A stretch of 64,000 bases of DNA from Verrucomicrobiota bacterium. Its GTDB lineage: Bacteria > Verrucomicrobiota > Verrucomicrobiia > Palsa-1439. The notes under the pieces were generated by a model that was given only the letters and a program-made list of their open reading frames with translations, did no database searches and was not told the origin of the DNA. Made by a program: the position numbers and the translations under genes. The stretch covers positions 200,065 through 264,064 of the forward strand of contig PLZV01000057.1 of the NCBI GenBank assembly GCA_003152315.1, written 5' to 3'. The stretch's first letter is position 1. Each line of letters begins with the position of its first letter. Positions 6,313-44,137 of the stretch are shown one piece after another.

Positions 6313-7119
6313 ATGAAGTATTTTAAATGCCTGCTTTTACTTGTCGCCTCCGTGCTGTTCCTGGTGTCAGTCGGCGTCCGGGCCGATGACGATTCGGTCA
6401 CGCTCAATTCGGGGGAGATCGTCACGGGGCGGATCACATCCCAAACTGACACGGACATGACCGTTGAAGTCTCCAACGAACGTCACACGATTTTCACGAC
6501 GCGAATCATCGCCAGATCCGATATCAAGGAAGTCTACAAACCCACTCCGGAGCAGCGTCAGGCAGGCGTAGCTTACCAAGCGTTGGGTCGTTACCAGTTG
6601 AATCCCAACCAGGAACTCAAGCCCACCGATTATGCGGAGGGAATCGCGGCCTTCGACAAATTTCTGGCCGCGTATCCCAACTCGGAACAAGCCACGAACA
6701 TCGTCGCGCGACAGACCGAATGGCGATTTGAAAAATTCGAAGTGGACAACGGCCGCGTCAAATTCGCCGACAAATGGATGATGCCTGATTCGAAAAAACC
6801 GCTCGCCGAAGAACAACAACGTCAAGACCTGGAGCAGAGCCTTCCGAAGCAAGTGCGAATCGTCAAGGCAGCCCGGGCACGAGTGGCAGCGGCCCAAAAA
6901 GAGCATGATTTCCTGCACAGCACCGCCGGCTACAAAGGCAAGACACTACCGCCAGACGAATACACGCGGGTCATGGCCAGATACGCCGCCAACGACGCCG
7001 AAATCCCGAAAGCCCAAGCCAATCTGACGGCAGCCCAGGCGAAATTCAACGAGCTAAATGCCCAATACCAGAAACTCGGCGGCACGGTGAATTACCAGGA
7101 GCAGATTGACGGGAAATAA
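6313..7119 (+). CDS. Hypothetical secreted protein with C-terminal coiled-coil
   Basis: In-frame ATG at 6313 gives the signal-like MKYFKCLLLLVASVLFLVSVGVRA. The C-terminal third is Q/A/K-rich with heptad-like periodicity. No family motif recognised. Confidence 0.45.
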   Translation: MKYFKCLLLLVASVLFLVSVGVRADDDSVTLNSGEIVTGRITSQTDTDMTVEVSNERHTIFTTRIIARSDIKEVYKPTPEQRQAGVAYQALGRYQLNPNQELKPTDYAEGIAAFDKFLAAYPNSEQATNIVARQTEWRFEKFEVDNGRVKFADKWMMPDSKKPLAEEQQRQDLEQSLPKQVRIVKAARARVAAAQKEHDFLHSTAGYKGKTLPPDEYTRVMARYAANDAEIPKAQANLTAAQAKFNELNAQYQKLGGTVNYQEQIDGK

Positions 7120-15760: not shown

Positions 15761-16312
15761 ATGCAATTACACGAACAACCAGATTCCGAAGTCGTCCGGC
15801 AAATTCAGTCGGGTGACGATTCCGCATTTGACGAATTGATGGGGCGCTATAAACGGCCCGTCGTGAACTTCGTTTTCCGCATGCTCGGCAACGCGGATGA
15901 CGCCGACGATGTGGCGCAGGAAGTGTTCGTGCGCGTTTACCAGAAGCTCGACACCTACCGACCCGAGACAAAGTTCTCCACGTGGCTCTTTGCGTTGGCC
16001 CGCAACGCCGCGATCGACCGTTTGCGCTGGCGCAAGCGACATCCCACCGAGTCGATCGATCCGGATTCACCACTGGTGGCCGCAACGGATACCGCGCAGG
16101 AAGTCGACGCCCGTGAGCTTGGCGAGTTGATTGCCGCGGCAGTAAGTGAACTTCCGGAAGATCAACGGACCGTCCTGGTGCTCGCCGAGTACCAAGGAAT
16201 GTCGCATGCGGAAATCGGCGCGGTCATGCGCTGTTCGGAGAAATCGGTGGAGGCGCGTCTCTATCGCGCCAAACAAACGCTGCGGAGAGGGTTGCGTCCC
16301 CTCTTGGAATGA
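15761..16312 (+). CDS. ECF-subfamily RNA polymerase sigma-70 factor
   Basis: 183 aa. Region 2 (DDADDVAQEVFVRVY..F.TWLFALARN) and region 4 (VLVLAEYQGMSHAEIGAVMRCSEKSVEARLYRAKQ) are present. Confidence 0.85.
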   Translation: MQLHEQPDSEVVRQIQSGDDSAFDELMGRYKRPVVNFVFRMLGNADDADDVAQEVFVRVYQKLDTYRPETKFSTWLFALARNAAIDRLRWRKRHPTESIDPDSPLVAATDTAQEVDARELGELIAAAVSELPEDQRTVLVLAEYQGMSHAEIGAVMRCSEKSVEARLYRAKQTLRRGLRPLLE

Positions 16313-16579
16313 CGTGCGAGTGTAGCGCTTTAACCACGCTGACTGATTCAGTACAGCGCGCTTCCGAATCCGGGCGTCAGCGAGAAAATCTTGACGTGAC
16401 GGAATCATTTGCGCATGCGGTAGTTGCGGGATATTCACGCAAGCGTCGCGAGGTTGGCACGGCGGATGTTAATGCTCTGTCAACCGCGCGCGATGGTGCG
16501 CGACACCGAAGTGGAAGCAGTCGGTGTCGCCCCTCACCAACACCTTCGCCAAAGGCCTACCTTATCCCGTCGGAAGCTG

Positions 16580-16613
16580 AAAGCCCTCGTTGGAAACAAC
16601 GAGGGCTTTTTTT
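16580..16613 (+). terminator. Rho-independent terminator-like hairpin with T-run
   Basis: AAGCCCTCGTTG-GAAA-CAACGAGGGCTT followed by TTTTTT. It lies 270 bp after the ECF sigma stop and 20 bp before the anti-sigma start. Confidence 0.6.
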
Positions 16614-16632
16614 GCCGCCAACGTATTATTAG

Positions 16633-16971
16633 GTGATGAACCAAAATGACGACAGATTAAGTGCGCTCTTGAAGCGATGGCGCGATATCGAGCCACGAGG
16701 CAATTTCGAGGCCAACGTCTGGCGCCAGATCCGAATCGCCGCCGCGCCAGCGGTCGATACGGTCAACTGGATTGATCTAATCGGGCGCTTATTGTGGCAG
16801 CCCGCCTGGTCAGTTGTCGCAGCGATGGTGGTTGCGCTGATCGTCGGCGTCTGGGGCGGCATTGCCTCGGTTCCCCGGCAAACCGACAGGCCGACAGCGG
16901 AACTCCAATTCCTTTCCCCGGGTACGCTGGCGGGCAGCTACGCACAAATGCCAGCGAAGGTGACGAAATGA
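16633..16971 (+). CDS. Putative membrane anti-sigma factor for the adjacent ECF sigma
   Basis: 112 aa. The N-terminal LSALLKRWRDIEP motif is common in short anti-sigmas. A single TM segment follows (AWSVVAAMVVALIVGVWGGIA). Confidence 0.5.
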   Translation: MMNQNDDRLSALLKRWRDIEPRGNFEANVWRQIRIAAAPAVDTVNWIDLIGRLLWQPAWSVVAAMVVALIVGVWGGIASVPRQTDRPTAELQFLSPGTLAGSYAQMPAKVTK

Positions 16972-17435
16972 AGAAGACATTGATGGCCCTGGCGGTTTTG
17001 ACGCTCCTCGTCACCGCGGTTTCCTTCGGTGTGGCGCGCTGGTCAGTCCACTGCGCCATGGCCGCGCCAACCGTGAATCTGAACGATACGGCGTGGCTCA
17101 AGCACGAGCTGAACCTGACGGACGCGCAAACCGCCGAGGTCGGGAAACTCGAGAAGAATTACAACACGAGAATCGGGAATTGCTGCGACAAGCATTGCGA
17201 CGCGCGTCTCGCCCTGAGCAAAGAGCTGGAAAAATCGCCGGTCGATCTCCCCAAAGTCAACGCCTGCGTTGACCAAATGACCGCCGCGCAGGCCGAGTCG
17301 GAACACGCCACGCTCGATCACATTCTGGGAATTCGCGCCTTGCTGACGCCGGAACAGCAACAGCGCTATGCAAAACTTGTCAGCCAACAAGTCTGTAACG
17401 CCTGCCCAATCGATATGTCCCACAAGGCGCAATGA
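16968..17435 (+). CDS. Periplasmic CpxP/Spy/ZraP-like (LTxxQ-motif) stress or metal-sensor protein
   Basis: ATGA overlap with the anti-sigma stop. It has a signal peptide and LTDAQ and LTPEQ motifs. The family is often linked to metal-responsive envelope stress. Confidence 0.5.
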   Translation: MKKTLMALAVLTLLVTAVSFGVARWSVHCAMAAPTVNLNDTAWLKHELNLTDAQTAEVGKLEKNYNTRIGNCCDKHCDARLALSKELEKSPVDLPKVNACVDQMTAAQAESEHATLDHILGIRALLTPEQQQRYAKLVSQQVCNACPIDMSHKAQ

Positions 17436-18694
17436 AACCAATCATTGTCGCCATTCTCCTGGCAGTTGTAACCGCCACGGCCCGCGCCCAGGTGAGTAAT
17501 TCGTTGCAAGCCTGCATCGACACCGCGCTGGCCAATAATCCGGAGATCGCGGCCTCGCAGCGGAAGTGGGAAGCCGCGCGTCAGAAAATCCCACAAGCCC
17601 GCGCGCTGGATGATCCGATGATCGGCGTGATTGTCGATCGCGTGGAGACGAAGCGCTTCGATACGTTCGACGAGAATGAGTGGATGATTTCGCAGACTGT
17701 CCCGTGGTTCGGCAAGCGCGATTTACGCGGCGGCGTCGAGGCCGGCGCAGCAACACGGGCGGAGATGGATTGGCGGATGAAAAAGTTGGATGTCGTCGCG
17801 ATGGTCAAACAGGCCTACTACGATCTTTGGCAGGCCCAGCGTGAATTGGAAGTAAACGAGCGCAACCAGGAATTGTTGCGGCAGTTTGTGGAAGCGGCGC
17901 GGACGCGCTACGAGACCGGCAGCGGCACGCAGTCCGATCTCATCCGTGCGCAGAACGAATTGGCCAAGCTGGCCGAGGACCGTGTCGATCGCGTGCGCAC
18001 GCAACAACAGGCGCTGGCGGATTTGAACCAACTGCTGCGGCGTCCGCCGGAGACGCCCGTGGATATTGGCCCCGAAGTCACCGCGCCCGTCGTGGAGTTG
18101 GGCATAACCCTGGAACAACTCCAGGCGGCGGCGGAGGATCGGCCGGAATTACTTGGGGCACGTGAAGGCGCCGTCCGAAGCGCCACGGCAGCACTGGCGT
18201 TGGCGAAGAAGGGCTACTATCCCGATGTCCAGTTTCGGTTTGAAGCGCGGCAGTATAGCGGCGCGAGCGGCATCCAGGAATATGACACGGGTGTGTTCAT
18301 CAATTTCCCATGGCTTAACCACGGCAAGTACAAAGCCGCGGTCGCCGAGGCGCGAGCCAACCTCGACGCCAGCCGTGATGATTTGGACGCGATGCGCGTG
18401 CGCACCGCCTCCGAGGTAAGGAAATTATACGATGGCGTGCATACGATGCATCATCACTATGACCTGTACACAGAAAGACTGATCCCGCAGCAACGGCTCG
18501 CCGTCGAGTCCGCGCGCGCGGCGTACGAGACCGGTGCCGGCGGGTTCCTGGACTTGCTGGATGCAGACCGCATGCTGTTTGATTTGGAAATGCAGAACTT
18601 GCATCATGCCGCGGAGTTTCAGCGGCTCCTGGCCTCGTTGGAACGGACGGCCGGCGGTCGATTGTCATTGCCGCTGGTAGAGGAGAAAAAATGA
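17432..18694 (+). CDS. cusC: TolC-family outer-membrane efflux protein (CusC-like)
   Basis: 420 aa with a signal peptide and two OEP repeat halves. It is translationally coupled to the previous gene (ATGA) and to cusB. Confidence 0.8.
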   Translation: MKPIIVAILLAVVTATARAQVSNSLQACIDTALANNPEIAASQRKWEAARQKIPQARALDDPMIGVIVDRVETKRFDTFDENEWMISQTVPWFGKRDLRGGVEAGAATRAEMDWRMKKLDVVAMVKQAYYDLWQAQRELEVNERNQELLRQFVEAARTRYETGSGTQSDLIRAQNELAKLAEDRVDRVRTQQQALADLNQLLRRPPETPVDIGPEVTAPVVELGITLEQLQAAAEDRPELLGAREGAVRSATAALALAKKGYYPDVQFRFEARQYSGASGIQEYDTGVFINFPWLNHGKYKAAVAEARANLDASRDDLDAMRVRTASEVRKLYDGVHTMHHHYDLYTERLIPQQRLAVESARAAYETGAGGFLDLLDADRMLFDLEMQNLHHAAEFQRLLASLERTAGGRLSLPLVEEKK

Positions 18695-20088
18695 AACGGG
18701 GTCTTCGCTTTGTCGCCGTCGCGCTGGCGCTCGCATCGTGCGTCGCGTTGGTTTCCTGCGGAAAGAAGGGACCGGAAGGGCCGGAGGCCGCTGCCGAGGC
18801 CGGGAAACCGGCAAAGTATCACTGCCCGATGCATCCGTCCGTTACGTCGGACAAACCCGGTAACTGCCCGATCTGCAACATGAAACTGGTGCCGATTGAC
18901 AACTCGGGACATGACCGCGCGGGAGAGACCAGGGTGGCAACGAAGAAAATACTGTACCGTTCGTCGATGAACCCCAACGAGGTCAGCGACAAGCCCGGCA
19001 AGGACTCGATGGGCATGGAGATGGTACCGGTGGAGGTGACCGCGGGCGCGGGAACGGAACCACCCGGCCTGGCGTCGGTTTCAATCACGCCGGCAGCGCG
19101 CGAACGCATGGGGCTGGCTTTCAGCACGGTGGAGAGACGCTCTCTCTCTCGTGATGTTCGCACTTCCGCGCGCATCGTCCCGGATGAAGTGCGGCTCTAC
19201 CACGTCACGGTAAAGGCCGAGGGCTGGGTCGAGCATTTGCATGAGGTGACGAAGGGCGCCTTCTTCAAGAAAGGTGTGCCGTTGATGAAGATTTACAGCC
19301 CCGAACTGGTCACGGCGGGGGAGGACTATCTGGTGGCCTTGCGAAACCGTCAGAAGATTCTGGCCGCCGGCGGGTCGGCGAATCCTGACGCGGCCAGCGA
19401 TGCGGAGATGATGGTTACTTCGGCGCGGAAGCGGCTGGAACTCTTGGATTTTCCCGCGGCACAAATCGAGAGAATCGAGCGCACTGGAGAAGTGGAGAAG
19501 GAGATGACGATCTACTCGCCCGTCGACGGCTGGGTGGCGGAGATTAACATCGCGGCCGGCCACAAGATCAGGCAGGGTGAATCGCTGCTGGTCCTGGCCG
19601 ATTACTCAGTGGTGTGGGCGAACGCAGATGTGTACGAACCCGACCTGCCGTTCGTAAAGATTGGGATGCCGGTCGAATTGACGGTGCCGTACTATCCGGA
19701 TAAAGCGTTCCGCGGTGATGTGTCATTCATTTCGCCGACGCTCGATCCGGAGACCCGCACGGTGAAAGTGCGTATGAACATCCCCAACCCAAATCTGCTG
19801 CTCAAACCAGAGATGTACGCTGACGCGCGGTTGTCGTACGAACTCGGTGAAAGGCTGGCCGTGCCGGTGGGAGCCGTGATGTTTTCCGGCGACCGCGTTT
19901 ATGCGTTTCGTGACGGAGGTGATGGCCGACTGGTTCCTGTCCTGTTGAAACTGGGAGTCCGTAGCGACGGATACTTTGAAGTGCTCTCCGGGCTGAACGA
20001 AGGCGATCGCGTGGTCACATCGGCCAACTTCCTGGTGGACTCCGAATCGTCAATGAAGGCCGCCATCGAAGCGTTGGCTGGAAAATAG
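18691..20088 (+). CDS. cusB: RND efflux periplasmic adaptor (CusB-like) with N-terminal HMBD metal-binding motif
   Basis: Lipoprotein-like start, then YHCPMHPSV...CPICNM, which is the same HMBD motif as in copA. The C-terminal region is an HlyD-like barrel. Confidence 0.85.
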   Translation: MKRGLRFVAVALALASCVALVSCGKKGPEGPEAAAEAGKPAKYHCPMHPSVTSDKPGNCPICNMKLVPIDNSGHDRAGETRVATKKILYRSSMNPNEVSDKPGKDSMGMEMVPVEVTAGAGTEPPGLASVSITPAARERMGLAFSTVERRSLSRDVRTSARIVPDEVRLYHVTVKAEGWVEHLHEVTKGAFFKKGVPLMKIYSPELVTAGEDYLVALRNRQKILAAGGSANPDAASDAEMMVTSARKRLELLDFPAAQIERIERTGEVEKEMTIYSPVDGWVAEINIAAGHKIRQGESLLVLADYSVVWANADVYEPDLPFVKIGMPVELTVPYYPDKAFRGDVSFISPTLDPETRTVKVRMNIPNPNLLLKPEMYADARLSYELGERLAVPVGAVMFSGDRVYAFRDGGDGRLVPVLLKLGVRSDGYFEVLSGLNEGDRVVTSANFLVDSESSMKAAIEALAGK

Positions 20089-20091
20089 TCC

Positions 20092-23000
20092 ATGATCCGC
20101 AAGATCATCCAGTTCAGCGCCGCGAATCGCCTCCTGGTCATCATGCTGGTGGCTGCGGCGCTGGCCTACTCGTTTTACACGCTGGGCCACATCCGCCTCG
20201 ATGCCATCCCCGACCTCAGTGACACGCAGGTCATCGTCTCGACGAAATGGGACCGCAGTCCGGACATCCTCGAGGACCAGGTCACGTATCCGATCATTAC
20301 CGCATTGCTCGGCGCGCCGCGCGTGAAGGCGATTCGTGGGTTCAGCGATTTCGGGTTCTCGTATGTGTACGTGATCTTCGAAGACGGCACCGACCTCTAC
20401 TGGGCGCGCAGCCGCGTCAATGAGTACCTCTCGAAGATCGCGGGACAGTTGCCGACGGGAGTGACTCCCGAACTCGGTCCGGATGCGACGGGCGTTGGCT
20501 GGGTGTACCAATACGCGCTCGTGGACAAATCCGGCAAACACAGCCTCGCCGATTTGCGCAGTTATCAGGATTGGGTCCTGCGGTACACGCTCCAGAGCGT
20601 GCCGGGCGTAGCCGAGGTCGCCGGACTGGGCGGTTTCCAGAAACAGTACCAGGTGACCGTCGATCCCGTGCGGCTTCAGGCCTACGGCGTCGGCGTCGTG
20701 GAAATCATGGACGCGATCAAACACAGCAATAACGAAGTCGGCGGCCGCTTGATCGAGTGGAACGGCAAGGAATTCATGGTGCGCGGACGCGGCTACGTCA
20801 AGTCGACCGAGGACCTCGGCCAGGTCGCACTGAAGGTGAACAAGGAAGGCACGCCGGTACTATTGCGCGACGTGGCAAACATCGCCATCGGGCCGCAGAT
20901 TCGTCGCGGCATCGCGGACCTCAACGGCACCGGCGACGTGGTCGGCGGCATCGTCATTATGCGCCACGGGGAGAACGCACTCAACGTCATCGGACGCGTG
21001 AAGGCGAAGTTGCAGGAAATCAAGCCGTCGCTGCCGGAGGGCGTCGAGATTGTCTCGACGTACGACCGCTCCGAGTTGATCAAGAAGTCCATCCACAACC
21101 TGACGGACGACCTGGTTATGGAAATGATTATCGTCAGCTTTGTCGTTCTCTTCTTCCTCTGGCACATCCCCTCGGCGATTGTGCCGATCATCACGATCCC
21201 GATCTCGGTCGCGCTGGCGTTCATCCCGATGTACTTCATGGGCATCACCTCGAACATCATGAGCCTCGCGGGCATCGCGATTTCCATCGGCGTGCTGGTG
21301 GACGGCGCGATAGTCGAAGTCGAGAACGCCTACAAGAAACTCGAGCGCTGGCAGGAGGAGGGGCGGCAGGGTGATTTTCACAAAATTCGCCTCGAAGCGT
21401 TGCTGGAGGTCGGACCCTCGGTATTCTTCTCGCTCCTGGTAATCGCGGTGGCGTTCTTGCCCGTGTTCACGCTCGTGGACCAGGAAGGGCGCCTCTTCAA
21501 GCCGCTCGCGTACACGAAGACGCTGGCGATGGCCCTGGCTGCCCTGCTCGCCGTCACCCTCGATCCCGCCGTGCGCATGCTGTTCACACGCATGGAACCA
21601 TTCAAGGCACGCCCACGCTGGTTGGCATGGCTGCTGAACGGCGTTCTCGTCGGGAAGTATTACCCCGAAGAAAAACATCCGGTCAGCCGCGTGCTGTTTT
21701 GGTTGTACGAGAAGCCGTGTCGCTTCGTCCTGCGTTACCCGAAAACGATCATCGCGCTCGCGGCGTTGATCGTGGCGACGACCGTGCCCGTGTATTTCAA
21801 ACTGGGTTCGGAATTCATGCCGCCGCTGAATGAGGGCGCGGTCCTTTACATGCCGACGACGCTACCCGGTATCTCGGTGACGGAAGCGGCACGGTTGATG
21901 GCGTCCGAGGACCGGATTCTGAAACAATTTCCAGAGGTCATCAGCGTCCATGGCAAGGCGGGCCGGGCGGACACCTCTACCGATCCGGCGCCGTTCTCGA
22001 TGATGGAGACGGTGGTGCAACTCAAGCCGATGTCCGAGTGGAGACCGAAGCCGCGCTTCTTCTCCTCGTGGCCCGGACCGTTGCGCTCCGTACTCGGTCG
22101 CATCTGGCCCGAACACGTTTCATGGGACGACCTCATCAACGAAATGGATCGCGCGTTGCAGATTCCCGGGAGCGTCAACGCATGGACCATGCCGATCAAG
22201 AACCGCACCGACATGCTGGCCACGGGTATTCGCACGCCCGTCGGTATAAAAGTATTCGGCGCGAACCTCGATGAGATCCAGCGCATCGGCGAGAACCTCG
22301 AGGCTATTCTGCGGAAAGTGCCGGGCACGCGCAGCGTTTTTGCCGAACGCGCCGCGGGCGGTTACTTCGTGGACATCATCCCGAAACGCGAGGCAATTGC
22401 CCGTTACGGGTTGACCGTCGAAGACGTGCAGAACGTGATCATGACCGCCATCGGCGGCGAGACGATTTCGACGACGATTGAAGGCCGCGAGCGGTACACG
22501 ATCAATCTTCGTTACCCGCGCGATCTGCGCAGTGACCTCGATCAGCTCGAGCACGTGCTCGTCATGTCTTCGCTCGGACGGCAGGTGCCTCTCAAGGAGG
22601 TGGCGGATATCTCGCTCGTCAACGGCCCCTCGATGATTCGCGACGAGAATGGGATGCTGGCGGGTTACGTGTATGTGGACATCACGGGCCGCGATGTGGG
22701 CGGTTACGTCGAGGACGCCAAGCGCGCGGTCGCCGCCGAACTGAAGCTGCCGACGGGTTATTCGATTGTCTGGAGCGGCCAGTACGAGAATATGCTGCGC
22801 GTGCGCGAGCGATTGAAGGTCGTGTTGCCGCTGACCATCGTGCTGATCTTCCTGTTGTTGTACGCGAACACCAAATCGACGTTCAAGGCGGCGGTGGTCA
22901 TGCTCGCAGTTCCGTTCTCGCTCGTCGGCGCGGTGTGGTTGCTCTGGCTGCTCGGCTACAACATTTCCATCGCGGTCTGGGTGGGAATGATTGCCCTGAT

Positions 23001-23373
23001 GGGACTCGACGCGGAGACGGGCGTGTTTATGTTGTTGTTCCTGGATTTGTCCTACGACGAAGCGAAGCGCAATGGCAAGCTGCGCAATTTGTCCGACCTG
23101 CACGAAGCGATCATTCACGGCGCGGTGAAACGCATTCGCCCGAAGATGATGACGGTGGGCGCGGCCGTGATGGGCTTGATGCCGATCATGTGGTCCATAG
23201 GCAGCGGCGCGGACATGATGAAGCGCATCGCCGCCCCCATGGTCGGCGGATTGTTCACCTCGTTTCTGATGGAACTACTCGTCTATCCCGCCATCTACCT
23301 CCTGTGGAAATGGCACAAAGAAGTGAAACCGTCGCTCGCTCCGGAAGCCTTTGGGAAGATTCAGACAGAATAA
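20092..23373 (+). CDS. cusA: Heavy-metal efflux RND transporter, CusA/CzcA family
   Basis: 1093 aa with 12-TM RND topology. HME-family segments are present. Confidence 0.9.
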   Translation: MIRKIIQFSAANRLLVIMLVAAALAYSFYTLGHIRLDAIPDLSDTQVIVSTKWDRSPDILEDQVTYPIITALLGAPRVKAIRGFSDFGFSYVYVIFEDGTDLYWARSRVNEYLSKIAGQLPTGVTPELGPDATGVGWVYQYALVDKSGKHSLADLRSYQDWVLRYTLQSVPGVAEVAGLGGFQKQYQVTVDPVRLQAYGVGVVEIMDAIKHSNNEVGGRLIEWNGKEFMVRGRGYVKSTEDLGQVALKVNKEGTPVLLRDVANIAIGPQIRRGIADLNGTGDVVGGIVIMRHGENALNVIGRVKAKLQEIKPSLPEGVEIVSTYDRSELIKKSIHNLTDDLVMEMIIVSFVVLFFLWHIPSAIVPIITIPISVALAFIPMYFMGITSNIMSLAGIAISIGVLVDGAIVEVENAYKKLERWQEEGRQGDFHKIRLEALLEVGPSVFFSLLVIAVAFLPVFTLVDQEGRLFKPLAYTKTLAMALAALLAVTLDPAVRMLFTRMEPFKARPRWLAWLLNGVLVGKYYPEEKHPVSRVLFWLYEKPCRFVLRYPKTIIALAALIVATTVPVYFKLGSEFMPPLNEGAVLYMPTTLPGISVTEAARLMASEDRILKQFPEVISVHGKAGRADTSTDPAPFSMMETVVQLKPMSEWRPKPRFFSSWPGPLRSVLGRIWPEHVSWDDLINEMDRALQIPGSVNAWTMPIKNRTDMLATGIRTPVGIKVFGANLDEIQRIGENLEAILRKVPGTRSVFAERAAGGYFVDIIPKREAIARYGLTVEDVQNVIMTAIGGETISTTIEGRERYTINLRYPRDLRSDLDQLEHVLVMSSLGRQVPLKEVADISLVNGPSMIRDENGMLAGYVYVDITGRDVGGYVEDAKRAVAAELKLPTGYSIVWSGQYENMLRVRERLKVVLPLTIVLIFLLLYANTKSTFKAAVVMLAVPFSLVGAVWLLWLLGYNISIAVWVGMIALMGLDAETGVFMLLFLDLSYDEAKRNGKLRNLSDLHEAIIHGAVKRIRPKMMTVGAAVMGLMPIMWSIGSGADMMKRIAAPMVGGLFTSFLMELLVYPAIYLLWKWHKEVKPSLAPEAFGKIQTE

Positions 23374-29126: not shown

Positions 29127-31247
29127 CTAGTGGAGGACGTGGAAGTCGCCGAGGGACTGATCGTTGGGGCCGGCGGGCATCCAGTGGAAGGACGGGGTCC
29201 GGACGTTGACACTCGTGATGTGGGCGCTGGCGGCGATGCCGAAGGTGAGACCACCGTTCGCGGTCACGACGCTGGAAAGCTTAACGTCCGCAATCGTCGT
29301 GGCCGCGACATCGCTATTCACAAAACCGTTGACGGTCGAACGGATGCTGAGGGTGCGGAGATGCACTCCTTCCAGGAATGTGCCACTGGCGAGCGGGTTG
29401 CTCGGATCATCCGGCGTGTAACCGACGAAAATAGTGGAATCAATCATCTGCAAGGCGCTAAGGGAACCGATGCTGCCGTTGGCGATGGCGATAGTGGCAT
29501 TGCTGATCGCGCCGGACACGCTGAGTTGCGCGAGAGCCAGTTGATTCGTGGCGATACCCGCGCCGGAGACGGTGATCGTTCCATCACAATCGCCGGGAAT
29601 CCCATTCCGTTTGTCACCCTTGATCGAGATGTTGCCGATCCACGGTGCGTCGATGGTGGCGTCGACGCCAAAACGCGCGGCGCTCAGGCTCTTGAGCCGG
29701 CTCCCAATGGCAATGGCGCTGTTGTCGTCAAGATTGTGGGCCATGATAGTGGTTTTCTGGCTTTCAGAACCGTTGGCCGTAATGGACGCGCCGTTGAGCA
29801 GGTCGTGGATCTTCAATTGCCCCAGGTAGTCGCCCAACTGGATGCCGGTCCCGACCACGTCAAAATCCCGCGCGTCGATGAGGCGACATCCTCCCTCGCC
29901 GGTGATTTGGTCAATCTGCAGCGAACCGGTTCCCGCCCGGTTCTTCTTGACCTTGATCGTGAGAACGCTGCTCGCGTCGGTCGCGGCCAGAACCAGATCA
30001 AGGGGCTCCAGTTGCGAGACCGTCATCGCCCCCGCAAACTGCAGCTTCAGCGTCACCACGCCCCCACCCGAATTCGTGAAGGTAAACGTTTGCGGCCTGT
30101 CGTTGACGATTGTTACCACGGCGGTTGTCTGGGTTCCGAGGACAGCTCCCACGGGATTGAACAACGTCACATTGACAGTCTTGTTGCTTTGGAAGGTCAT
30201 GAATTTCTCGATGGTGAAACTGAAGCTCGATCGCGACGTGCCCGGCGCAAAGACAAGCGTGCCATGTGTGCTGAGATAGTCGACCCCGTTGCTCGCGGTG
30301 CCGTCGCTCGTGGCGTAATCGACGCTGTCTTGCGTGCTGGCATCTCCAAACCGGATCGCCGTGATTGTGGCGTGGCCCACATGTTCGTGGACGTTCTCAG
30401 CGGCCGCGCTCAACTGGATGACGTGCGGCCCCGTCGCCACAATCGTCAACGTCGCATGCACCGGGCTGCCCAGGGTGGCCCCGTCAGCGGGATTGGTGAG
30501 CGTCAGTTTCACGGTCTGGTTGGTTTCCAGTGCGCCCGGCGGCAAAATCGGAATGGTGACCGTATTCGTAAGGACGCCATTGGCAAACGTGACCGTCCCA
30601 GTTGTCGTCGTGTAATCGATACCGGCCTTCGCTGAGCCGTCGCTGGTGCTAAAATCGACTGCCACCGTCCCGTTTGTCGCGCCAACTCGGACCAGCGTGA
30701 TGGTCGCAACCGCGTCCGTATCATCCACCGAGTACGATGCCTGCGCAAACTGCAGTTGTTCCACCTCGTCATTGATAATCGTGAGCACGGCGGTTGACGG
30801 GCTGCCCAGGACAACGGGCCCGGTGGGATTGGACAGGGCGAGATTGACCGTCTGCGTGGATCCCGCCACGCCATTGTTTAACAGGCCAATGTTGACCGTG
30901 TTGGTTACGGCTTCCGTAGTATTGGTGGGGTTTTCCGCGGCGAAAGTCACAGTGTTGGAGACGGCGACGTAATCCACTCCCGCCACGGCCGTGCCATTGC
31001 TCGTCGAGAAATCTACCGAAGCTGTCGCATCCGTGCTGCCCGAGAAGATGACGGTGATGAGCGCGTTACTTTGGGACGCAGCCACCGTGTAAGCGGACTG
31101 GCTAAAGACAACGGTTCCCGTCTGCCCTCGCGCCAGACCCGGGAAAAAAACGGCGGCGCAGCCGGCGACGAGTAATGAAATGAGAAATCCGCGCGGTCTG
31201 AGAACCCCAATACCTGAGCCGAAGCCCTGACGCCGTGTATTCTGCAC
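29127..31247 (-). CDS. Secreted Calx-beta repeat protein (adhesin-like)
   Basis: 706 aa with a signal peptide. It has several repeats of the Calx-beta signature (..VDFSTSDGSAKAGIDYTTTTGTVTF.., VDYATSDGTASNGVDY..GTLVF). Confidence 0.6.
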   Translation of the reverse strand: MQNTRRQGFGSGIGVLRPRGFLISLLVAGCAAVFFPGLARGQTGTVVFSQSAYTVAASQSNALITVIFSGSTDATASVDFSTSNGTAVAGVDYVAVSNTVTFAAENPTNTTEAVTNTVNIGLLNNGVAGSTQTVNLALSNPTGPVVLGSPSTAVLTIINDEVEQLQFAQASYSVDDTDAVATITLVRVGATNGTVAVDFSTSDGSAKAGIDYTTTTGTVTFANGVLTNTVTIPILPPGALETNQTVKLTLTNPADGATLGSPVHATLTIVATGPHVIQLSAAAENVHEHVGHATITAIRFGDASTQDSVDYATSDGTASNGVDYLSTHGTLVFAPGTSRSSFSFTIEKFMTFQSNKTVNVTLFNPVGAVLGTQTTAVVTIVNDRPQTFTFTNSGGGVVTLKLQFAGAMTVSQLEPLDLVLAATDASSVLTIKVKKNRAGTGSLQIDQITGEGGCRLIDARDFDVVGTGIQLGDYLGQLKIHDLLNGASITANGSESQKTTIMAHNLDDNSAIAIGSRLKSLSAARFGVDATIDAPWIGNISIKGDKRNGIPGDCDGTITVSGAGIATNQLALAQLSVSGAISNATIAIANGSIGSLSALQMIDSTIFVGYTPDDPSNPLASGTFLEGVHLRTLSIRSTVNGFVNSDVAATTIADVKLSSVVTANGGLTFGIAASAHITSVNVRTPSFHWMPAGPNDQSLGDFHVLH

Positions 31248-31526
31248 GATCTTACTTAGCGCCTCGGGATTAAAAATGCAAACGCGGAATTAGGCAGCCA
31301 GCCCTGATGGGGTCAACACCCCATATCATTGCGCCTCGTTCCGCCCTATTGTGCTTCCACGAAACACAATCTCAAGAAGAAGACGCTGACGTTTGGCGGC
31401 CTGATCGAGAGTGTTTACGGCGCTTGCACCCAACCCCGGGCAAAAGCCCTGATGCAACTCGCCGTTAATGCGCACCTCATTACCTTTCGGGGACCACGCC
31501 GTTTCATCATTTCCTGAGGAAACCCT

Positions 31527-31715
31527 ATGAAGAGAACCACATGGCCAGCTTTGAAATTGGCGGTCTTGTTGGGCACAATCTCCGTGTTGCTGACGGGATG
31601 CTTTATCTGGCGAGACCACGATCACGACGAATCGCCTCGGCATGAGGATAACGATCATCATGATCAGGATCACCACGACGACCAGGATCATCACGATAAT
31701 GAGGACCACCAATGA
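31527..31715 (+). CDS. Small lipoprotein with His/Asp-rich (HD-repeat) metal-binding-like tail
   Basis: GAGGA RBS 8 nt upstream. Signal peptide plus lipobox (LLTGC), then HDHDESPRHEDNDHHDQDHHDDQDHHDNEDHQ. An intrinsic terminator lies 80 bp downstream on the same strand. The antisense ORF 31326..31712 is rejected. Confidence 0.5.
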   Translation: MKRTTWPALKLAVLLGTISVLLTGCFIWRDHDHDESPRHEDNDHHDQDHHDDQDHHDNEDHQ

Positions 31716-31794
31716 TGCTCAGGATCATCCCTGAGTAAGCAGCCTCAGACCGCTTGCTCGTGACTCGCCTCATTTGTGGGGGATAAAAGGTGGA

Positions 31795-31852
31795 ATAAGG
31801 GGCCAGTTCGCTTGTTGTAAGCATGTTCTGAAAAGCGGGCTGGCCCTTTTTC
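31795..31852 (+). terminator. Rho-independent terminator-like compound hairpin followed by TTTTT
   Basis: AAGGGGCCAG...CTGGCCCTTTTTCT with an inner CGCTT/AAGCG stem. Confidence 0.5.
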
Positions 31853-32022
31853 TCCATGTACCTCGGTTGGTAGAACAACGATGCACATCACCACTCTCCT
31901 GGCCACGATCTGAGATCACCGGAGTATGGCCTGGAGATGGCGCAGACACAACGGTGGGTGAAGTTGCAGGCTCCCCTCGAATAGTCGGCAGGAATTTCTC
32001 AACCCCTGTTGCCAGAAGGCCG

Positions 32023-32685
32023 TTAATGCCGGCGGCGCCGCAGGAGAACCAATCCGGCGAATCCGGCTGCCGCCAGAGCCAGCGCGCTTGGCTCGGGAAC
32101 CTGCGTGAACGTCTGGTCGATGGTCGAAATAGTCGCGAAGGCCCGCAATTCCGCACTGATCAGCACGTCCTTGGAAAGCGTCAGTAAGGGTTGGGGCGGG
32201 GTAATCGGCAAACTTGCTGACAACTGATTCGTCGTTGCCGAGGCAAAAACCTGCATCTGTCCGGCGAGCTGGTTGTTGTTGGTGAACACCTGCTCGACCA
32301 CTTGTGCCACACCCACGCCGAAGGTTACCTGTCCGTTGAAAAGAAGGTTCGCCGCCGAAATCAGATTCGGTGAGTTGGTCACGCTTACCTGGTAACCAAG
32401 ATTGAAGTCCATCGGCGTGCCACCGGAGAAGAGCGCGCCGCTGAACCGAATGCCAAAATTGCCACCTTCCAGGATTGGGGTGACGTTGACCTGACTGGCT
32501 TGATAATCGCCACTAATGCTGAAATCCGTGAAGGCCTTGTCTCCAACGATAATGGTTTGGTTGTTGGTCAGGTTCACCATGCTGATCGTTGGCCCAAGAA
32601 TTATTTGGGCCTCGGTAGCGAGCGCACACACTACGGCAAGAGCGATCGCCGCGCAGATGACCAGAGGATATTGCCCGGAGCGCAA
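32023..32685 (-). CDS. PEP-CTERM sorting-domain secreted protein
   Basis: Signal peptide. The C-terminal VPEPSALALAAAGFAGLVLLRRRRH is a PEP motif plus TM plus basic tail. Confidence 0.7.
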   Translation of the reverse strand: MRSGQYPLVICAAIALAVVCALATEAQIILGPTISMVNLTNNQTIIVGDKAFTDFSISGDYQASQVNVTPILEGGNFGIRFSGALFSGGTPMDFNLGYQVSVTNSPNLISAANLLFNGQVTFGVGVAQVVEQVFTNNNQLAGQMQVFASATTNQLSASLPITPPQPLLTLSKDVLISAELRAFATISTIDQTFTQVPEPSALALAAAGFAGLVLLRRRRH

Positions 32686-33370
32686 CAGGACAAGCCATTC
32701 GGAGACCGGCTTGTTTAATAGCTGTTTTGAATCCGCTTAGGTAGAAGAGAAGGTTTTTTATCCCAGCCATATTTCCCTTGCCCAACAGGGCATACGACAA
32801 CCCAACATCTTTCCAAGCCACTCGAATCAACTTATGACCCGATAACCTTAATTGGAGGCGCGTCGTAATAAATCCTATGGCCCAAGTCAAGTCCGAAGCG
32901 AAAATAACTGCTGTTAAGTAGTTTCCGTCGTCATCTTTACCTCTGTAAATGAGGCAAAAACCCTGTAACACATTCGGCATCAATTAAGTGGCGGATGGCA
33001 CGTACCACAGCAGAAGTGAATCATCATCGGGATAACATCACTCAGGGTACCGCCCCCAAGTCGCCCCATCGTCCCTGACTTGTTCGACACAGTGCCGCGT
33101 TTCGCCACGGCACCCAAAACGAGCCTGTAAGCCAAGAAGATGCTTGCATTTTGCTCAAAGTTGCTGACATTAATCTCCTCCCATGGCGAGGGGAGCACGC
33201 GGGTCGGGTTGGGTCGGTGGATTTATTTTGGCAACCGGCTAACGCTTTAACTCTGGCTGTTTCGACTGCGTGCAGGTCTCCTGTTCGGACTTCCTTTTCC
33301 CGCCTGTGCGGTGTGCCCTGTATTCCATGCGAGTGAATGCGGAACACGTAAGAAAAGAAAAGGAAACTTC

Positions 33371-35071
33371 ATGAAAGCAATTCGCTGGTCCATCCAATTA
33401 TCAGGTCTCATTGCCTTGTCGTTCGTCCTTACAGTGGCGGAGGCCCGTGCCGATGCCAATTCTGTCGTGCTGGAGAACGCCACCGGCGGGCCGTTTGGCG
33501 CGTTTAACGGAACCGGCCAGGTGATTGGCATGATCGAGAGCGATATACCGGACACCTCGCATGTGTACTTTGTGAAGGGGAACTTTAAGTTGGTCAATAT
33601 AGGCGACAACCCACCCCTCAACACTTGGCCGCAACTGGTTGACACTCACGCTACGGAAGTGGCTGGTGTGATGATCAGCACGGATGTAACGACAATCGGC
33701 GTCGCCCCCGGTGCGCAAGTCTATGCGGCGGGAGGCCTCGGCGGCTACTATCCGACCACCGGACCGACCAATACGGGTCTCGATTTCCAGACCAACGTCA
33801 TCAATGCGATTACGTTTCTGGCGTCACAGCCAAATCTGCACGTCATTAACATGAGTATCGGCCTCGACTCGGTCATCGATGTGAATCCTTTGGGCACGGA
33901 TGTTGTCGTCCGCACTTACAACACCTCCGGCACGAGCGTCTGGGAACGGGCCATGGACAACATTGTCTCCACAAAGTCGGTTTCGATCGTAGTGGCTGCG
34001 GGCAACGAGGCCAATCTCCGCAGTGCGGGAGCCAATAGTAGCGGAGGAACCAATACTCTCGGTGAACAAGCCGGCGCTTACAATATTATTACGGTTGGCT
34101 CCGTGACGAATGCCATAGCAGGGACGGCCACGAATGTGTCATTTTTCAGTTCTCGGGGATACCTGGCTAACGGTCGATCCGCTCTTGATATCGTCGCCCC
34201 TGGCGAAGGGATCATTATGCCAACGACCAACGTAGCCGCCGGCCTGGGCAGCACCGCCACCACAACCGCCAATGGTACCAGTTTTGCGACACCGGCTGTG
34301 GCCGCAACCATCGCGCGGCTCGTGCAGTTCGGAGGCACCTTCCTCAATTCCAACGACGTGACGGATCCACGGACGATCAAAGCTGTATTATTGAATTCGG
34401 CGACGAAATTGCCTGGTTGGGGGCAGGGTGCCGTCTTCAATGGCACTGCTGGGCTCACGGGCATGCTCACTGGCGGGGTAACGTCTGTGACGCAACCGTT
34501 GGACCCCAACCAGGGTGCCGGGTTGCTCAACGCCAACGGGGCCTACCTCCAACTGGCTGCGGGTAAGAAATCGCCTACGATCCAGCAGAACGGGCTCGTC
34601 AATATCCCCAACCCCGCCGTCCCGTTGACCGGTTGGGACCTCAATAGCGTAAAGCTAAGCTTGACCAACATCTACCAACTGAGCTCCCAGGCGGGGGGGA
34701 CCATGGCCTTGACGCTGGACTGGTATCGAGATGTTGGAGCACCAGTGGCGGGAACGAACAGCATTCTGGGCCTGGCCGATCTGAACCTGTATCTCTACAG
34801 TAGCGCGGACAACATGTACACCAACGTGCCGTTGATCGCCCAGTCTATTAGCGGAGTCGACAACGTCGAGCACCTGTGGTTCACCAATCTGCCCACGGCC
34901 TATTACCAATTCACCGTTGGTTATTCCGGCTACTCGGGTGGCGCTGCCCCAGGATCCGAGGACTACGCGCTTGCCTGGAACTTCACTGTCCCCGAGCCGA
35001 GTTCGTTGCTGCTGGCCGTGTTGGGTATATCCACCCTCTGGTGGCAGACAAAGCGCAAACGGCGAACGTGA
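33371..35071 (+). CDS. Subtilisin-like S8 serine peptidase with C-terminal PEP-CTERM anchor
   Basis: ATG at 33371 and a signal peptide. Catalytic His block HATEVAGVM and catalytic Ser block GTSFATPAVAATIARL are present. The C-terminal VPEPSSLLLAVLGISTLWWQTKRKRRT is a PEP-CTERM signal. Confidence 0.8.
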   Translation: MKAIRWSIQLSGLIALSFVLTVAEARADANSVVLENATGGPFGAFNGTGQVIGMIESDIPDTSHVYFVKGNFKLVNIGDNPPLNTWPQLVDTHATEVAGVMISTDVTTIGVAPGAQVYAAGGLGGYYPTTGPTNTGLDFQTNVINAITFLASQPNLHVINMSIGLDSVIDVNPLGTDVVVRTYNTSGTSVWERAMDNIVSTKSVSIVVAAGNEANLRSAGANSSGGTNTLGEQAGAYNIITVGSVTNAIAGTATNVSFFSSRGYLANGRSALDIVAPGEGIIMPTTNVAAGLGSTATTTANGTSFATPAVAATIARLVQFGGTFLNSNDVTDPRTIKAVLLNSATKLPGWGQGAVFNGTAGLTGMLTGGVTSVTQPLDPNQGAGLLNANGAYLQLAAGKKSPTIQQNGLVNIPNPAVPLTGWDLNSVKLSLTNIYQLSSQAGGTMALTLDWYRDVGAPVAGTNSILGLADLNLYLYSSADNMYTNVPLIAQSISGVDNVEHLWFTNLPTAYYQFTVGYSGYSGGAAPGSEDYALAWNFTVPEPSSLLLAVLGISTLWWQTKRKRRT

Positions 35072-37527: not shown

Positions 37528-37603
<76 letters not shown>

Positions 37604-37912
37604 GATTTTTGGTCGTGCTAGGCGGGGAGTTAGCGGTTCCCTGCACCAGCAACCCGCTACAGCTGGGCCGAATTCCTCGCCGAGGCGGCGATGTGGGCGA
37701 GCAAACCGCGGGGCGGCGTCGAAGGCCGGGTCCGATGCAATGGTTGCTTGCGAACCCCGCCAGGGTCGGAAGACAGCAACGGTAAGCTTGATGTTCCATG
37801 TGCCGTCGGGGTGCCTGGCTGGAGCTTTAACCGCGGCGCGCGAACCGATGTCGTTTGTCGAAGCGAGGTGCACGGCCATTCTTTCGGTGTGGAGACTGTT
37901 TGAGGTAAATTC

Positions 37913-39574
37913 ATGGCGCAGCAATATCAGGTCCTGGCGCGAAAATGGCGCCCGCAGCAGTTCGACGACGTCGTGGGGCAGGAGCACGTCACCACCACGT
38001 TGAAGAACGCCATCGGACAGAACCGCCTCGCGCACGCCTACCTCTTCGTCGGGCCGCGCGGCATCGGCAAAACTTCCACCGCCCGCATCTTCGCCAAGGC
38101 GCTCAACTGCGTGAAGGGGCCGACCGCCACGCCCTGCGACAAGTGCGACAACTGCCTGGAAATCACCGAGGGGCGGTCGCTCGACGTGCTGGAAATCGAC
38201 GGCGCCTCCAATAACGGCGTCGAACAGGTCCGCGAACTGCGCGACACCGTCCGCTATGCGCCGGCCCGCGGCAAGTTCAAGATTTACATTATCGACGAAG
38301 TCCACATGCTCACCACACAGGCCTTCAACGCGCTCCTTAAGACCCTCGAGGAGCCGCCGGCGCACGTGAAATTCATTTTTGCGACGACCGAGCCGCAAAA
38401 GGTGCTGCCGACGATTCTCTCGCGCTGCCAGCGGTTCGACCTGCGCCGGATTCCCGCGAACCTCATCGTCAAGCACCTCAAAGAGATCGCGAAAAAAGAG
38501 AAGGTGGCGATCGACGACGATGCGCTGGCGGCCATCGCGCGCGGCGCGGAAGGCGGCCTGCGCGACGCGGAAAGCACGCTCGACCAGCTCATCGCGTTTT
38601 GCGGCAACAAGATTGCCGAGGCGGACGTGCTGTCGGTTTTCGGGCTCGTCGCCCACGACCGGATCGCGGCCCTCACCGATGCGGTCCTCGATGGCCAGAC
38701 GACGAAGGCGCTCCAGGTGTTGAAGGACCTCGACGACGCCGGCAAGGATCTGCAACGGCTCGCGACGGATTTGCTCGATCATTTTCGCAATCTGCTCGTC
38801 GTGACGTTGGGCGCGGAGGGGGTCGCGTCCTTGCAATTGCCCGAATCCGAAATGGAACTGCTCGCGGCGCAGGCCAAACGCACGGATTCCGACGCGGTGC
38901 TGCGAATCATCGATGCGCTGGCTGCCGCCGAGGGGCGCCTTCGCTACGCGTTATCCAAGCGTGTGCTTTTCGAGATCGCGCTGGTCAAGGCCGTCAAGGC
39001 TCGCGACATGGTTGGGATCGATGGCTTGCTGAAGAAATTGAACGAGTTGAAGAGCGGACTGCAGTCAAGCCCCCGTATGGGCGATGTTTCTATCGCGAAA
39101 GTTGCTTCCGTAGCACCCCCGACTCGCATCCGGGAGGCCACTCCCGCGAATTCGCCCGCCACCATCGAGGAAGCATGGGCCTACGCGCTGGAACATCTTG
39201 GGAAGGTCACGCCGCTGGCGAAGAGTTATCTGGTCGGGACGCGGGTATTTGGTCTTAAGGGCAATGTGCTGGTCGTGCGCTTCGATCCCGAGTTCGCCGA
39301 TCGCAAGGAATTCGCCGATCATCCCCGCAACATCGAAATCTTGCAGGCGAGCTTGAAGGAAAAGTTGCGGATGGACGTCGCGCTGAAATTCGAGGTTGGG
39401 GAAGTCTCAACCGCGCCGGCGCCGAAGGCCGCCGCGGCTTCGCCGGCAAAGCTGGGAGCGCCTGCCAAAGCGACTCCGCCGGCAAAAATGAACGTAGATG
39501 ACTTTAAGAATGACCCATTGATCAAGAAGGCGCTGGAGATTTTCAAAGGAACAATCGTCGAAGTCAGAAAATAG
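37913..39574 (+). CDS. dnaX: DNA polymerase III subunits gamma/tau
   Basis: Walker A GPRGIGKTSTARIFAK, zinc module CDKCDNC, Walker B IYIIDEVHML, sensor TILSRCQRF. Confidence 0.9.
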   Translation: MAQQYQVLARKWRPQQFDDVVGQEHVTTTLKNAIGQNRLAHAYLFVGPRGIGKTSTARIFAKALNCVKGPTATPCDKCDNCLEITEGRSLDVLEIDGASNNGVEQVRELRDTVRYAPARGKFKIYIIDEVHMLTTQAFNALLKTLEEPPAHVKFIFATTEPQKVLPTILSRCQRFDLRRIPANLIVKHLKEIAKKEKVAIDDDALAAIARGAEGGLRDAESTLDQLIAFCGNKIAEADVLSVFGLVAHDRIAALTDAVLDGQTTKALQVLKDLDDAGKDLQRLATDLLDHFRNLLVVTLGAEGVASLQLPESEMELLAAQAKRTDSDAVLRIIDALAAAEGRLRYALSKRVLFEIALVKAVKARDMVGIDGLLKKLNELKSGLQSSPRMGDVSIAKVASVAPPTRIREATPANSPATIEEAWAYALEHLGKVTPLAKSYLVGTRVFGLKGNVLVVRFDPEFADRKEFADHPRNIEILQASLKEKLRMDVALKFEVGEVSTAPAPKAAAASPAKLGAPAKATPPAKMNVDDFKNDPLIKKALEIFKGTIVEVRK

Positions 39575-39938: not shown

Positions 39939-40535
39939 ATGGATTATCCCCAGCCCGTTCAGAACCTGATCACCCAGGTGTCCCGCCTGCCCGGTATCGG
40001 CAAGCGGAGCGCGGAGCGCATCGCCTTGCACCTGCTAAAGGCCAACGGCGACACGAATCGCCTCCTCGCGCAAGCGATCCTCGATGCGAAGGCGAAGATC
40101 CGCAATTGCTCACGCTGCGGTGGCTATACCGAAAACGATCCCTGCGAAATTTGCGACAGCCCGCGCCGCGAGCAGTCCTCCATCTGCGTGGTGGAAGGTC
40201 CCAACGACATCCTCACGTTGGAACGCGCGGGCGTGCACAAGGGTGTTTACCACGCGCTGATGGGGAGGGTCTCACCGCTTAACGGTATCGGCCCCGAGCA
40301 ACTCCGCATCGCGGCGTTGCTGGAACGAGTGTCACGGGACAAACCGACAGAGGTCATTCTGGCGTTGGGGGCGGATGTGGAAAGTGAAGCGACGGTAAAC
40401 CACCTCATCGACCTGCTCAAACCGCTCGGCGTTTCTGTCAGCCGCATCGCGTTGGGGTTGCCCGTCGGTAGCGCCCTGGAAACCGCCGATGAAGTTACGC
40501 TCTCCCGCGCGCTGGAAGGCCGGCGAAAAGTTTAA
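39939..40535 (+). CDS. recR: Recombination protein RecR
   Basis: HhH (LPGIGKRSAERIALHLL), C4 zinc finger (CSRCGGYTENDPCEIC) and Toprim domain. Confidence 0.9.
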   Translation: MDYPQPVQNLITQVSRLPGIGKRSAERIALHLLKANGDTNRLLAQAILDAKAKIRNCSRCGGYTENDPCEICDSPRREQSSICVVEGPNDILTLERAGVHKGVYHALMGRVSPLNGIGPEQLRIAALLERVSRDKPTEVILALGADVESEATVNHLIDLLKPLGVSVSRIALGLPVGSALETADEVTLSRALEGRRKV

Positions 40536-44062: not shown

Positions 44063-44137
44063 TCCGCAGTAGCTCAATGGTGGAGCAGCGCACTGTTAAT
44101 GCGCGGGTTGTAGGTTCGAGTCCTACCTGCGGAGCCA
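44063..44137 (+). tRNA. tRNA-Asn (anticodon GTT)
   Basis: Acceptor TCCGCAG/CTGCGGA, D stem GCTC/GAGC, anticodon stem GCGCA/TGCGC with loop CTGTTAA, T arm GTAGG-TTCGAGT-CCTAC. Discriminator G and CCA. Confidence 0.9.

Follow-up and report, generated by a model that had tools for sequence, protein, structure and literature searches.

Two proteins from other bacteria, SmbP of Nitrosomonas europaea and Hpn of Helicobacter pylori, are small and rich in histidine, and a buffering role for Cu, Ni or Zn is ascribed to them. The former is a soluble periplasmic protein built of helical repeats, the latter is cytoplasmic; neither is a lipoprotein. In the zraP–zraSR and cpxP–cpxRA systems, a small periplasmic accessory protein is encoded divergently from its two-component system. 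The locus described here lies in a 64,000-nucleotide (nt) stretch of contig PLZV01000057.1 of a Verrucomicrobiota bacterium—referred to as the window—and holds, on the plus strand, a gene for a tiny predicted lipoprotein with a tail rich in His and Asp. The gene belongs to an undescribed family of tiny lipoproteins of 48 to 71 amino acids (aa) in uncultured Verrucomicrobiae, and in the literature on histidine-rich lipoproteins and on leaderless transcription in Verrucomicrobia no description of this lipoprotein family was found. Related loci and proteins are given L and P numbers throughout, and the coordinates of all features of the window are collected in Table 1.

The gene encodes a genuine 62-aa prolipoprotein, MKRTTWPALKLAVLLGTISVLLTGCFIWRDHDHDESPRHEDNDHHDQDHHDDQDHHDNEDHQ, with lipidation predicted from the lipobox. 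Its sequence is identical to the one quoted in the earlier note, which had read it as an open reading frame (ORF) with a signal peptide, a lipobox Cys and a His/Asp tail. A rule of the PROSITE PS51257 type was coded for this analysis: K or R within the first 7 residues, an uncharged h-region, a Cys at 15–35 and the lipobox pattern [LIVMFWSTAG]2-[LIVMFYSTAGCQ]-[AGS]-C. The window protein conforms to it with K2 and R3 in the n-region, uncharged residues 15–20 and the lipobox L-L-T-G-C25, as do 28 of the 35 members of the family. Export by Sec and subsequent processing by Lgt and LspA at Cys25 would leave a lipid-anchored peptide of 38 residues, CFIWR followed by DHDHDESPRHEDNDHHDQDHHDDQDHHDNEDHQ, with 12 D, 3 E, 10 H and 2 R. 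The conserved collar C-F-I-W-R would be followed by a tail of low complexity that is probably disordered; 15 acidic residues (D/E) are set against a similar number of potentially basic ones (10 H and 2 R). His makes up 26% and Asp 32% in the tail of the window peptide. Part of the tail is coded by an 18-nt tandem repeat of 2.6 copies, which yields DQDHHD units, and the number of DQDHH units per orthologue varies from 2 to 4 between loci. Just 3′ of the window stop codon, TGATGCTCAGGATCATCCCTGAGTAA (31713–31738) shares homology with the sequence that codes for the end ...DGQDHP* in L002 and L007. A 1-nt indel decides where the protein ends, so that variation at the C-terminus of the lipoprotein stems from frameshift in addition to repeat number.

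Relatives were gathered by a word-indexed protein search, which returned two, and by scans with back-translated patterns, which led to three loci in metagenome-assembled genomes (MAGs) of uncultured Verrucomicrobiae and to six metagenome loci. The comparison covers 12 orthologues from Verrucomicrobiae MAGs and metagenomes. All of them share one in-frame pattern: M-x3-5-KWSALKLAVLLGTxSVLLTGCFIWR[DG]HD, followed by an H/D/Q-rich tail. In the codon alignment, the pairwise differences at first, second and third codon positions amount to 259/257/494 for the part that codes for the signal peptide and to 208/220/728 for the tail; each indel is a multiple of three. The changes in the tail are dominated by synonymous CAC/CAT and GAC/GAT exchanges, in addition to in-frame changes of repeat number. 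This pattern—third-position bias, in-frame indels and the prevalence of CAC/CAT and GAC/GAT exchanges—argues that the tail is kept as protein. The earlier note had also asked whether the H/D tract occurs in non-coding contexts of relatives; it stands in frame behind a signal peptide in every one of them.

These data bear on the reading that no functional protein is made at all and that the ORF is a simple-sequence repeat in drift, a leader peptide for attenuation by His codons or the shadow of a gene on the minus strand. The tandem repeat with its variable copy number fits a drifting repeat, and a 128-aa minus-strand ORF does exist in the window, but the strong third-position bias and the in-frame indels argue strongly against a drifting repeat and, together with the non-conserved antisense ORF, against an antisense gene. 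In most relatives the minus-strand ORF is interrupted or of very different length and is hence a shadow ORF, as the earlier note had called it. Gene callers took the minus strand in six syntenic contigs (L012–L017, about 6193–6339, minus), where the public calls consist of a 48-aa antisense ORF with I/V/M runs and the lipoprotein gene is uncalled—a systematic antisense mis-call because of the GAY/CAY repeat. L007 carries an extra A in the A-run right after the lipoprotein ATG (4935–4951), a 1-nt frameshift that puts the start out of frame; it may reflect an error of assembly, mark a pseudogene or be prone to slippage. A leader peptide for attenuation of the hisL type, which would be a short ORF loaded with the regulatory codon ahead of the matching biosynthetic operon and combined with alternative terminator and antiterminator structures, was rejected: the next gene is on the minus strand, neither his nor other biosynthetic genes lie co-oriented downstream, a terminator follows directly, and the signal peptide and the lipobox are conserved. 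Rfam searches over 31200–32000 yielded nothing credible at the gathering threshold or at E ≤ 10, with a Thr_leader match at E = 8.6 regarded as noise. Taken as a whole, the non-functional reading is essentially excluded.

The search for homologues of short His/Asp-rich lipoproteins that the earlier note had recommended recovered the 12 orthologues and, in addition, the wider family of tiny lipoproteins. When 1.84 billion representative proteins were searched exhaustively with a hidden Markov model (HMM), 16 matches at E < 1e-3 emerged. Apart from the repeat artefact P0006 and two proteins of somewhat greater length, all are lipoproteins of 48–69 aa that share the type of signal peptide, have a G-C-F junction and carry charged tails. 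In a profile search, 26 out of 5.8 billion clusters of proteins matched, none of which carries a meaningful annotation. Sequence searches of Pfam, NCBIfam and PDB with the window protein and 22 family members returned nothing above cut-off, and no related chain in PDB; the best NCBIfam match, NF007454, reaches 15.2 bits against a cut-off of 195. Matches to LptM and entericidin A (E = 0.006–0.04) are sub-threshold and confined to the signal peptide. The family is probably under-counted because gene callers chose the antisense ORF in L012–L017.

In the window, a conserved small ORF of 52 aa, T/MKHNLKKKTLTFGGLIESVYGAC...FIIS, forms the first cistron and the lipoprotein gene the second. The lipoprotein gene is not a stand-alone unit, because its Shine-Dalgarno-like GAGGA overlaps the stop codon of this upstream ORF. 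Identity to the 52-aa query with the ATG restored is 90% for the homologue P0003 and 83% for P0004; against the window's own translation, the two reach 90% and 82%. The ORF with its ACG start is in the window either a recent pseudogene or a case of non-canonical initiation. The syntenic two-gene form—52-aa ORF plus lipoprotein—is found in the window, L006 and L012–L017, and divergent homologues of the 52-aa ORF occur in L008 and L024. In L004 it is truncated to 19 aa. Most other loci lack it, among them L007, whose flanking proteins are 97% identical to those of the window; the lipoprotein gene at the loci without it begins at exactly the same position and with similar first codons (MNHN... 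versus MKHN...). The 52-aa ORF has no match in Pfam or NCBIfam. Its AlphaFold2 model, with three sequences supplied, features two helices at a mean confidence score (pLDDT) of 61 and is too poor for a fold search; the product is predicted to be a cytoplasmic micro-protein.

A hairpin with a 14-bp stem, a 19-nt loop and TTTTT right after it—the make-up of an intrinsic (Rho-independent) terminator—follows the lipoprotein gene. The 155-nt stretch around it (31716–31870) folds at z = −2.98. The hairpin is 97% paired in 8 related sequences, with one compensatory change from A:U to G:C, and it accompanies the lipoprotein gene in the window, L002, L004, L006, L007, L009, L010 and L012, even where the next gene is a different one. 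A pattern scan missed it solely because the 19-nt loop is atypically long and exceeds the limit of 8 nt set in that scan. The loop, GTTGTAAGCATGTTCTGAA, is nearly invariant in 7 relatives, and its conservation exceeds that of the stem and of the coding sequence. The earlier note had ascribed to the gene a ribosome-binding site and a strong terminator of its own. Both elements are present in the window and the hairpin is kept in relatives, but the description of an independent unit does not carry over: the gene is the second cistron of a shared promoter module, the GAGGA is kept in L006 and not in L012 or L004 of the upstream alignment, and in most relatives a Shine-Dalgarno sequence before the lipoprotein gene is absent. 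A transcript driven by this module would, in the window, carry the lipoprotein as its second cistron, translated from the GAGGA, and would end at the conserved hairpin.

The promoter module features a 14-bp near-palindrome, GGGGTCAACACCCC (GGGGTG-N2-CACCCC, a single copy within the window), as the candidate site of a dimeric regulator and a −10-like hexamer with a putative promoter function. The palindrome is perfect in L022 (GGGGTGATCACCCC). In 22 instances, its first base lies 48–51 nt before a start codon. Aligned on the start codon, these instances show a consensus TA at −12/−11, and A at −11, T at −7 and ATGAA at +1 to +5 pass the information-content threshold. The palindrome is enriched in L024, with 7 strand matches against 0.06 expected, and in L008, with 8 against 0.14 expected. 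A promoter for leaderless mRNA is characterized by a −10 hexamer that ends about 6–7 nt ahead of the start codon and by the lack of a Shine-Dalgarno sequence. The geometry of the 22 instances is that of such a −10 hexamer combined with a candidate regulator site near −43.5, and transcripts would probably start at or next to the AUG. A promoter of an extracytoplasmic function (ECF) sigma factor, whose −35 and −10 elements carry AAC and CGT, respectively, with a spacer of 16–17 nt, was considered and rejected: L022 and L024 have another sequence in place of AAC but retain the palindrome (GGGGTGATCACCCC, GGGGTGATGACCCC), CGT is not conserved, and the spacer measures about 19 nt.

The 22 instances of the module precede at least 6 kinds of gene: tiny lipoprotein genes of the His/Asp or Arg/Asp type; members of the 52-aa family (L006, L012, L008 and two in L024); a gene for a 120-aa lipoprotein (L008); a gene for a 201-aa protein with sub-threshold sigma-70 similarity, reached via the mini-ORF MKANYK* (L008); a mini-ORF upstream of a DUF3568 gene (L024); and an operon of a PAS histidine kinase (HK) and two response regulators (RRs), which shares its palindrome divergently with a lipoprotein gene (L024, L025). 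At the two latter loci, the start codons lie 49 and 48 nt on either side of the shared palindrome. L008, L022, L024 and L026 are among the loci with palindrome modules; the module has its own start codon and sometimes yields mini-ORFs of 6 to 12 codons before longer genes. The neighbours in L024 include BON, DUF3568 and DUF2950 proteins and two-component systems. The term sigma-like is tentative for the L008 protein, with sub-threshold Sigma70_r2 and ECF matches only and no relative in PDB. Partners of such a regulon—the weakly sigma-like protein, the PAS kinase and further palindromes—were looked for in the window and none was found. The lipoprotein gene is probably a member of a small regulon of the envelope-stress type, because the same module precedes micro-protein genes, the PAS-HK/RR operon and the weakly sigma-like gene in relatives.

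The divergent arrangement in L024 and L025 could also indicate an accessory regulator of a two-component system, comparable to cpxP–cpxRA, zraP–zraSR or NlpE: the lipoprotein would tune the PAS histidine kinase with which it shares the palindromic control region, or signal to it, and the His/Asp tail would sense pH or cations. In line with this, L008 has a related HK/RR pair and the weakly sigma-like gene 3–5 kb away under the same palindrome. No kinase or regulator lies nearby in the window or at most orthologous loci, however; homology to CpxP, ZraP, Spy or NlpE is missing, and a shared operator is equally expected for an ordinary target of the regulon. An accessory regulator is therefore judged quite improbable.

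The composition of the tail was counted over 35 mature peptides of the family, and tails drawn from the pooled composition (5000 draws) served as the null. Acidic residues minus Arg and Lys range from 1 to 15. With His counted among the basic residues, the balance narrows to between −3 and +4, with a mean of 0.4 and a standard deviation of 1.9; the null has a standard deviation of 4.8, and 0 of the 5000 draws are as tight. The fraction of His and the fraction of Arg plus Lys are anticorrelated (r = −0.73), and the family spans members with near-zero Arg, as in the window clade, to members with near-zero His (P0029, CFYGRDRDRDRDDRRDHERHEEREHRE). Because members range from almost Arg-free to almost His-free with the charge balance kept, His appears to act as an alternative basic residue. 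Calculated from textbook pKa values, the window peptide has a net charge of about −13 at pH 7.5 and of about 0 at pH 4.5; members of the Arg/Asp (RD) type stay near neutral.

Composition and context together suggest, tentatively and as the foremost of the candidate functions, a pH-titratable, cation-binding polyampholyte that belongs to an envelope-stress-type regulon. The tail would be tethered to the membrane and balanced in charge, with titratable His residues as the cationic counterpart to Asp, and at the surface of the membrane it would act as a proton buffer and a ligand of divalent cations. Binding of transition metals in vitro would be certain, but as one facet of this polyampholyte function and not as the task of a dedicated metal store. 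The polyampholyte is favoured over such a store on three grounds: the exchange of His and Arg throughout the family, neighbours among which no metal gene is conserved, and the kind of genes under presumed shared control. Several points weigh against it. The charge-balance statistic ignores phylogenetic relatedness, and the distant RD-rich members may differ in function from the His-rich clade. Opposite charges alternate in the tail no more than in shuffled sequences. Hydrophilins are defined by Gly above 6% and high hydrophilicity; the mature window peptide has 0 Gly and falls outside this definition, whereas some distant members have 8–9 Gly. On the side of regulation, the module of the window has ACG as its start codon, the lipoprotein gene there has its own Shine-Dalgarno sequence, and the leaderless reading is drawn from sequence geometry. 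Finally, with its 10 His and 12 Asp, the window peptide is in composition like the loops of ZnuA, RcnA, DmeF and ZrgA, and an efflux cluster of the CusA/CzcA type lies 8 kb from the gene, which makes a metal role of this clade possible.

A dedicated buffer, store or chaperone for transition metals is possible on these grounds but somewhat less probable than the polyampholyte. A lipid-anchored (D-H-H)n tail would chelate Zn2+, Ni2+, Co2+ or Cu2+ in the periplasm and either protect from excess metal or pass metal on to transporters, and would in this resemble SmbP or the His-rich loops found in ZnuA or RcnA. His/Asp peptides of this type bind Zn, Ni, Co and Cu ions, and the tail of the window clade is chemically an excellent chelator. 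The only resemblances in the databases are to the His-rich stretches of RcnA, DmeF, ZnuA and ZrgA—compositional matches far below threshold, at 10–15 bits against cut-offs of 195–268, with E = 0.009–0.2 for ZnuA and DmeF and E = 0.009 for Pfam ZrgA in 4 of 22 members. The efflux cluster, with an ECF sigma factor, a Spy/CpxP-like protein, TolC, CusB and CusA/CzcA, is separated from the lipoprotein gene by unrelated genes, and its CzcA has no match in the syntenic locus L003; a link between the two was dropped, as they are neither adjacent nor syntenic. Among about 12 distinct genomic contexts, a metal transporter or metal sensor adjoins the lipoprotein gene in none, and distant members have unrelated neighbours. 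The shared promoter element would drive genes for a kinase, for the BON neighbourhood and for micro-proteins, not metal genes. In addition, the non-ligating Arg replaces His in family members with the charge balance kept, an exchange that chelation does not predict. Of what the earlier note had proposed, the real and conserved lipoprotein gene holds, while the role as a periplasmic metal buffer or store is not established: the similarity to metal proteins is one of composition only, no metal neighbour is conserved, and Arg takes the place of His.

The lipoprotein locus lies between a phosphoesterase/major facilitator superfamily (MFS) transporter/Calx-beta block and the tRNA/signal recognition particle (SRP) RNA/dnaX region in the window, L003, L004, L007, L010 and L012. 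The dnaX genes of the syntenic relatives are 91–95% identical, and the locus is a stable chromosomal gene of the window clade. The region next to the tRNA/SRP RNA is variable, because the PEP-CTERM/S8/PMT block (32–36.6 kb) is absent from L003, L004 and L012; an integrase occupies that place in L012. A gene for an AI-2E family transporter adjoins family members in two unrelated contexts, L008 8246–10051/L011 375–2177 and L020 4660–5703/L021, which are too few cases to call an association.

Table 1. Features of the lipoprotein locus and of its surroundings in window coordinates
Feature	Position	Strand	Remarks
14-bp near-palindrome, candidate dimeric-regulator site	31309–31322	.	centre about −43.5 from first start-codon position
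−10-like hexamer TATTGT (TAnnnT)	31347–31352	+	−12 to −7 relative to 31359; promoter function inferred
Conserved 52-aa small ORF, first cistron	31359–31517	+	start codon ACG (31359–31361), ATG in relatives
Shine-Dalgarno-like GAGGA	31516–31520	+	6 nt 5′ of lipoprotein ATG; overlaps TGA stop (31515–31517) of 52-aa ORF
Prolipoprotein gene, 62 aa, ATG start	31527–31715	+	codon-position bias, in-frame indels, lipobox rule, family
Signal peptide, aa 1–24 (predicted)	31527–31598	+	lipobox rule
Lipobox Cys25 (predicted)	31599–31601	+	lipobox rule
Aromatic collar F-I-W-R		+	directly after Cys25, between Cys25 and tail
D/H-rich tail, aa 30–62, 33 residues	31614–31712	+	
18-nt tandem repeat	31665–31711	+	Tandem Repeats Finder (TRF)
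Antisense 128-aa ORF, shadow	31326–31712	−	broken or very different length in most relatives
Intrinsic-terminator-like hairpin	31800–31851	+	arms 31800–31813/31833–31846, loop 31814–31832, T5 at 31847–31851
Heavy-metal efflux cluster	15761–23373	+	ECF sigma, Spy/CpxP-like, TolC-like, CusB/CzcB-like adaptor, CusA/CzcA resistance-nodulation-division (RND) pump (1084 bits)
Calx-beta repeat protein	29127–31247	−	
PEP-CTERM protein	32023–32685	−	
S8 peptidase with PEP-CTERM anchor	33311–35071	+	
Two tRNAs and bacterial large SRP RNA	37528–37875 and 44063–44134		SRP RNA 162 bits
dnaX	37913–39574		
recR	39939–40535		

For annotation, the locus provides a conserved family that is missing from Pfam and NCBIfam and for which an antisense shadow ORF is routinely called instead, which makes a case for better annotation of small genes. 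For regulation, it adds a module of palindrome, −10 box and AUG, tied to candidate regulators, in a poorly studied phylum. For chemistry, a natural lipid-anchored His/Asp peptide of 33 residues could serve as a minimal model for disordered peptides that respond to pH or metals, and the tail may help to explain the management of protons and cations in the periplasm of acid-soil bacteria. A broader picture, which is unlikely as a whole, would be a regulon of leaderless micro-protein genes in Verrucomicrobiae of soil and peat, with the GGGGTG-N2-CACCCC operator and its own PAS-kinase/RR operon. Its hallmark would be lipid-anchored polyampholytes under selection for a neutral charge, the His/Asp form being a pH-switchable proton and cation buffer that coats the membrane. 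If this picture were true, these products would constitute a new class of envelope-protective lipopeptide; if the tail were merely another metal-binding one, the biological impact would be modest.

Compared with the known systems, the window protein may be likened in function to the ZnuA and RcnA loops, SmbP and Hpn, and in build to LptM and entericidin; these likenesses are analogies, and homology was found in none of the cases. The loops of ZnuA, RcnA, DmeF and ZrgA feature, like the window tail, alternating runs of His and Asp/Glu and are exposed to the periplasm or located at the membrane. They are, however, parts of large folded transporters or binding proteins, whereas the tail of the window protein accounts for the entire mature product and is predicted to be lipid-anchored; the resemblance is one of composition and not of homology. 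No sequence similarity to SmbP or Hpn was detected, and the family of tiny lipoproteins differs from both in keeping an acid/base balance and in tolerating the exchange of His to Arg. The zraP–zraSR and cpxP–cpxRA arrangement is mirrored in L024 and L025, where the lipoprotein gene is divergent from the kinase/regulator operon across one operator-like palindrome. The ZraP and CpxP proteins are soluble, in contrast to the predicted lipid anchor here, there is no homology to them, and the divergent arrangement is absent from the window. LptM (YifL) and entericidin A/B are, like the window protein, made as precursors of 45–70 aa with little beyond a lipobox signal peptide and a short tail, but their tails are not H/D or R/D polyampholytes. 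What appears to be new is a minimal family of lipid-anchored His/Asp peptides with a regulatory module of its own.

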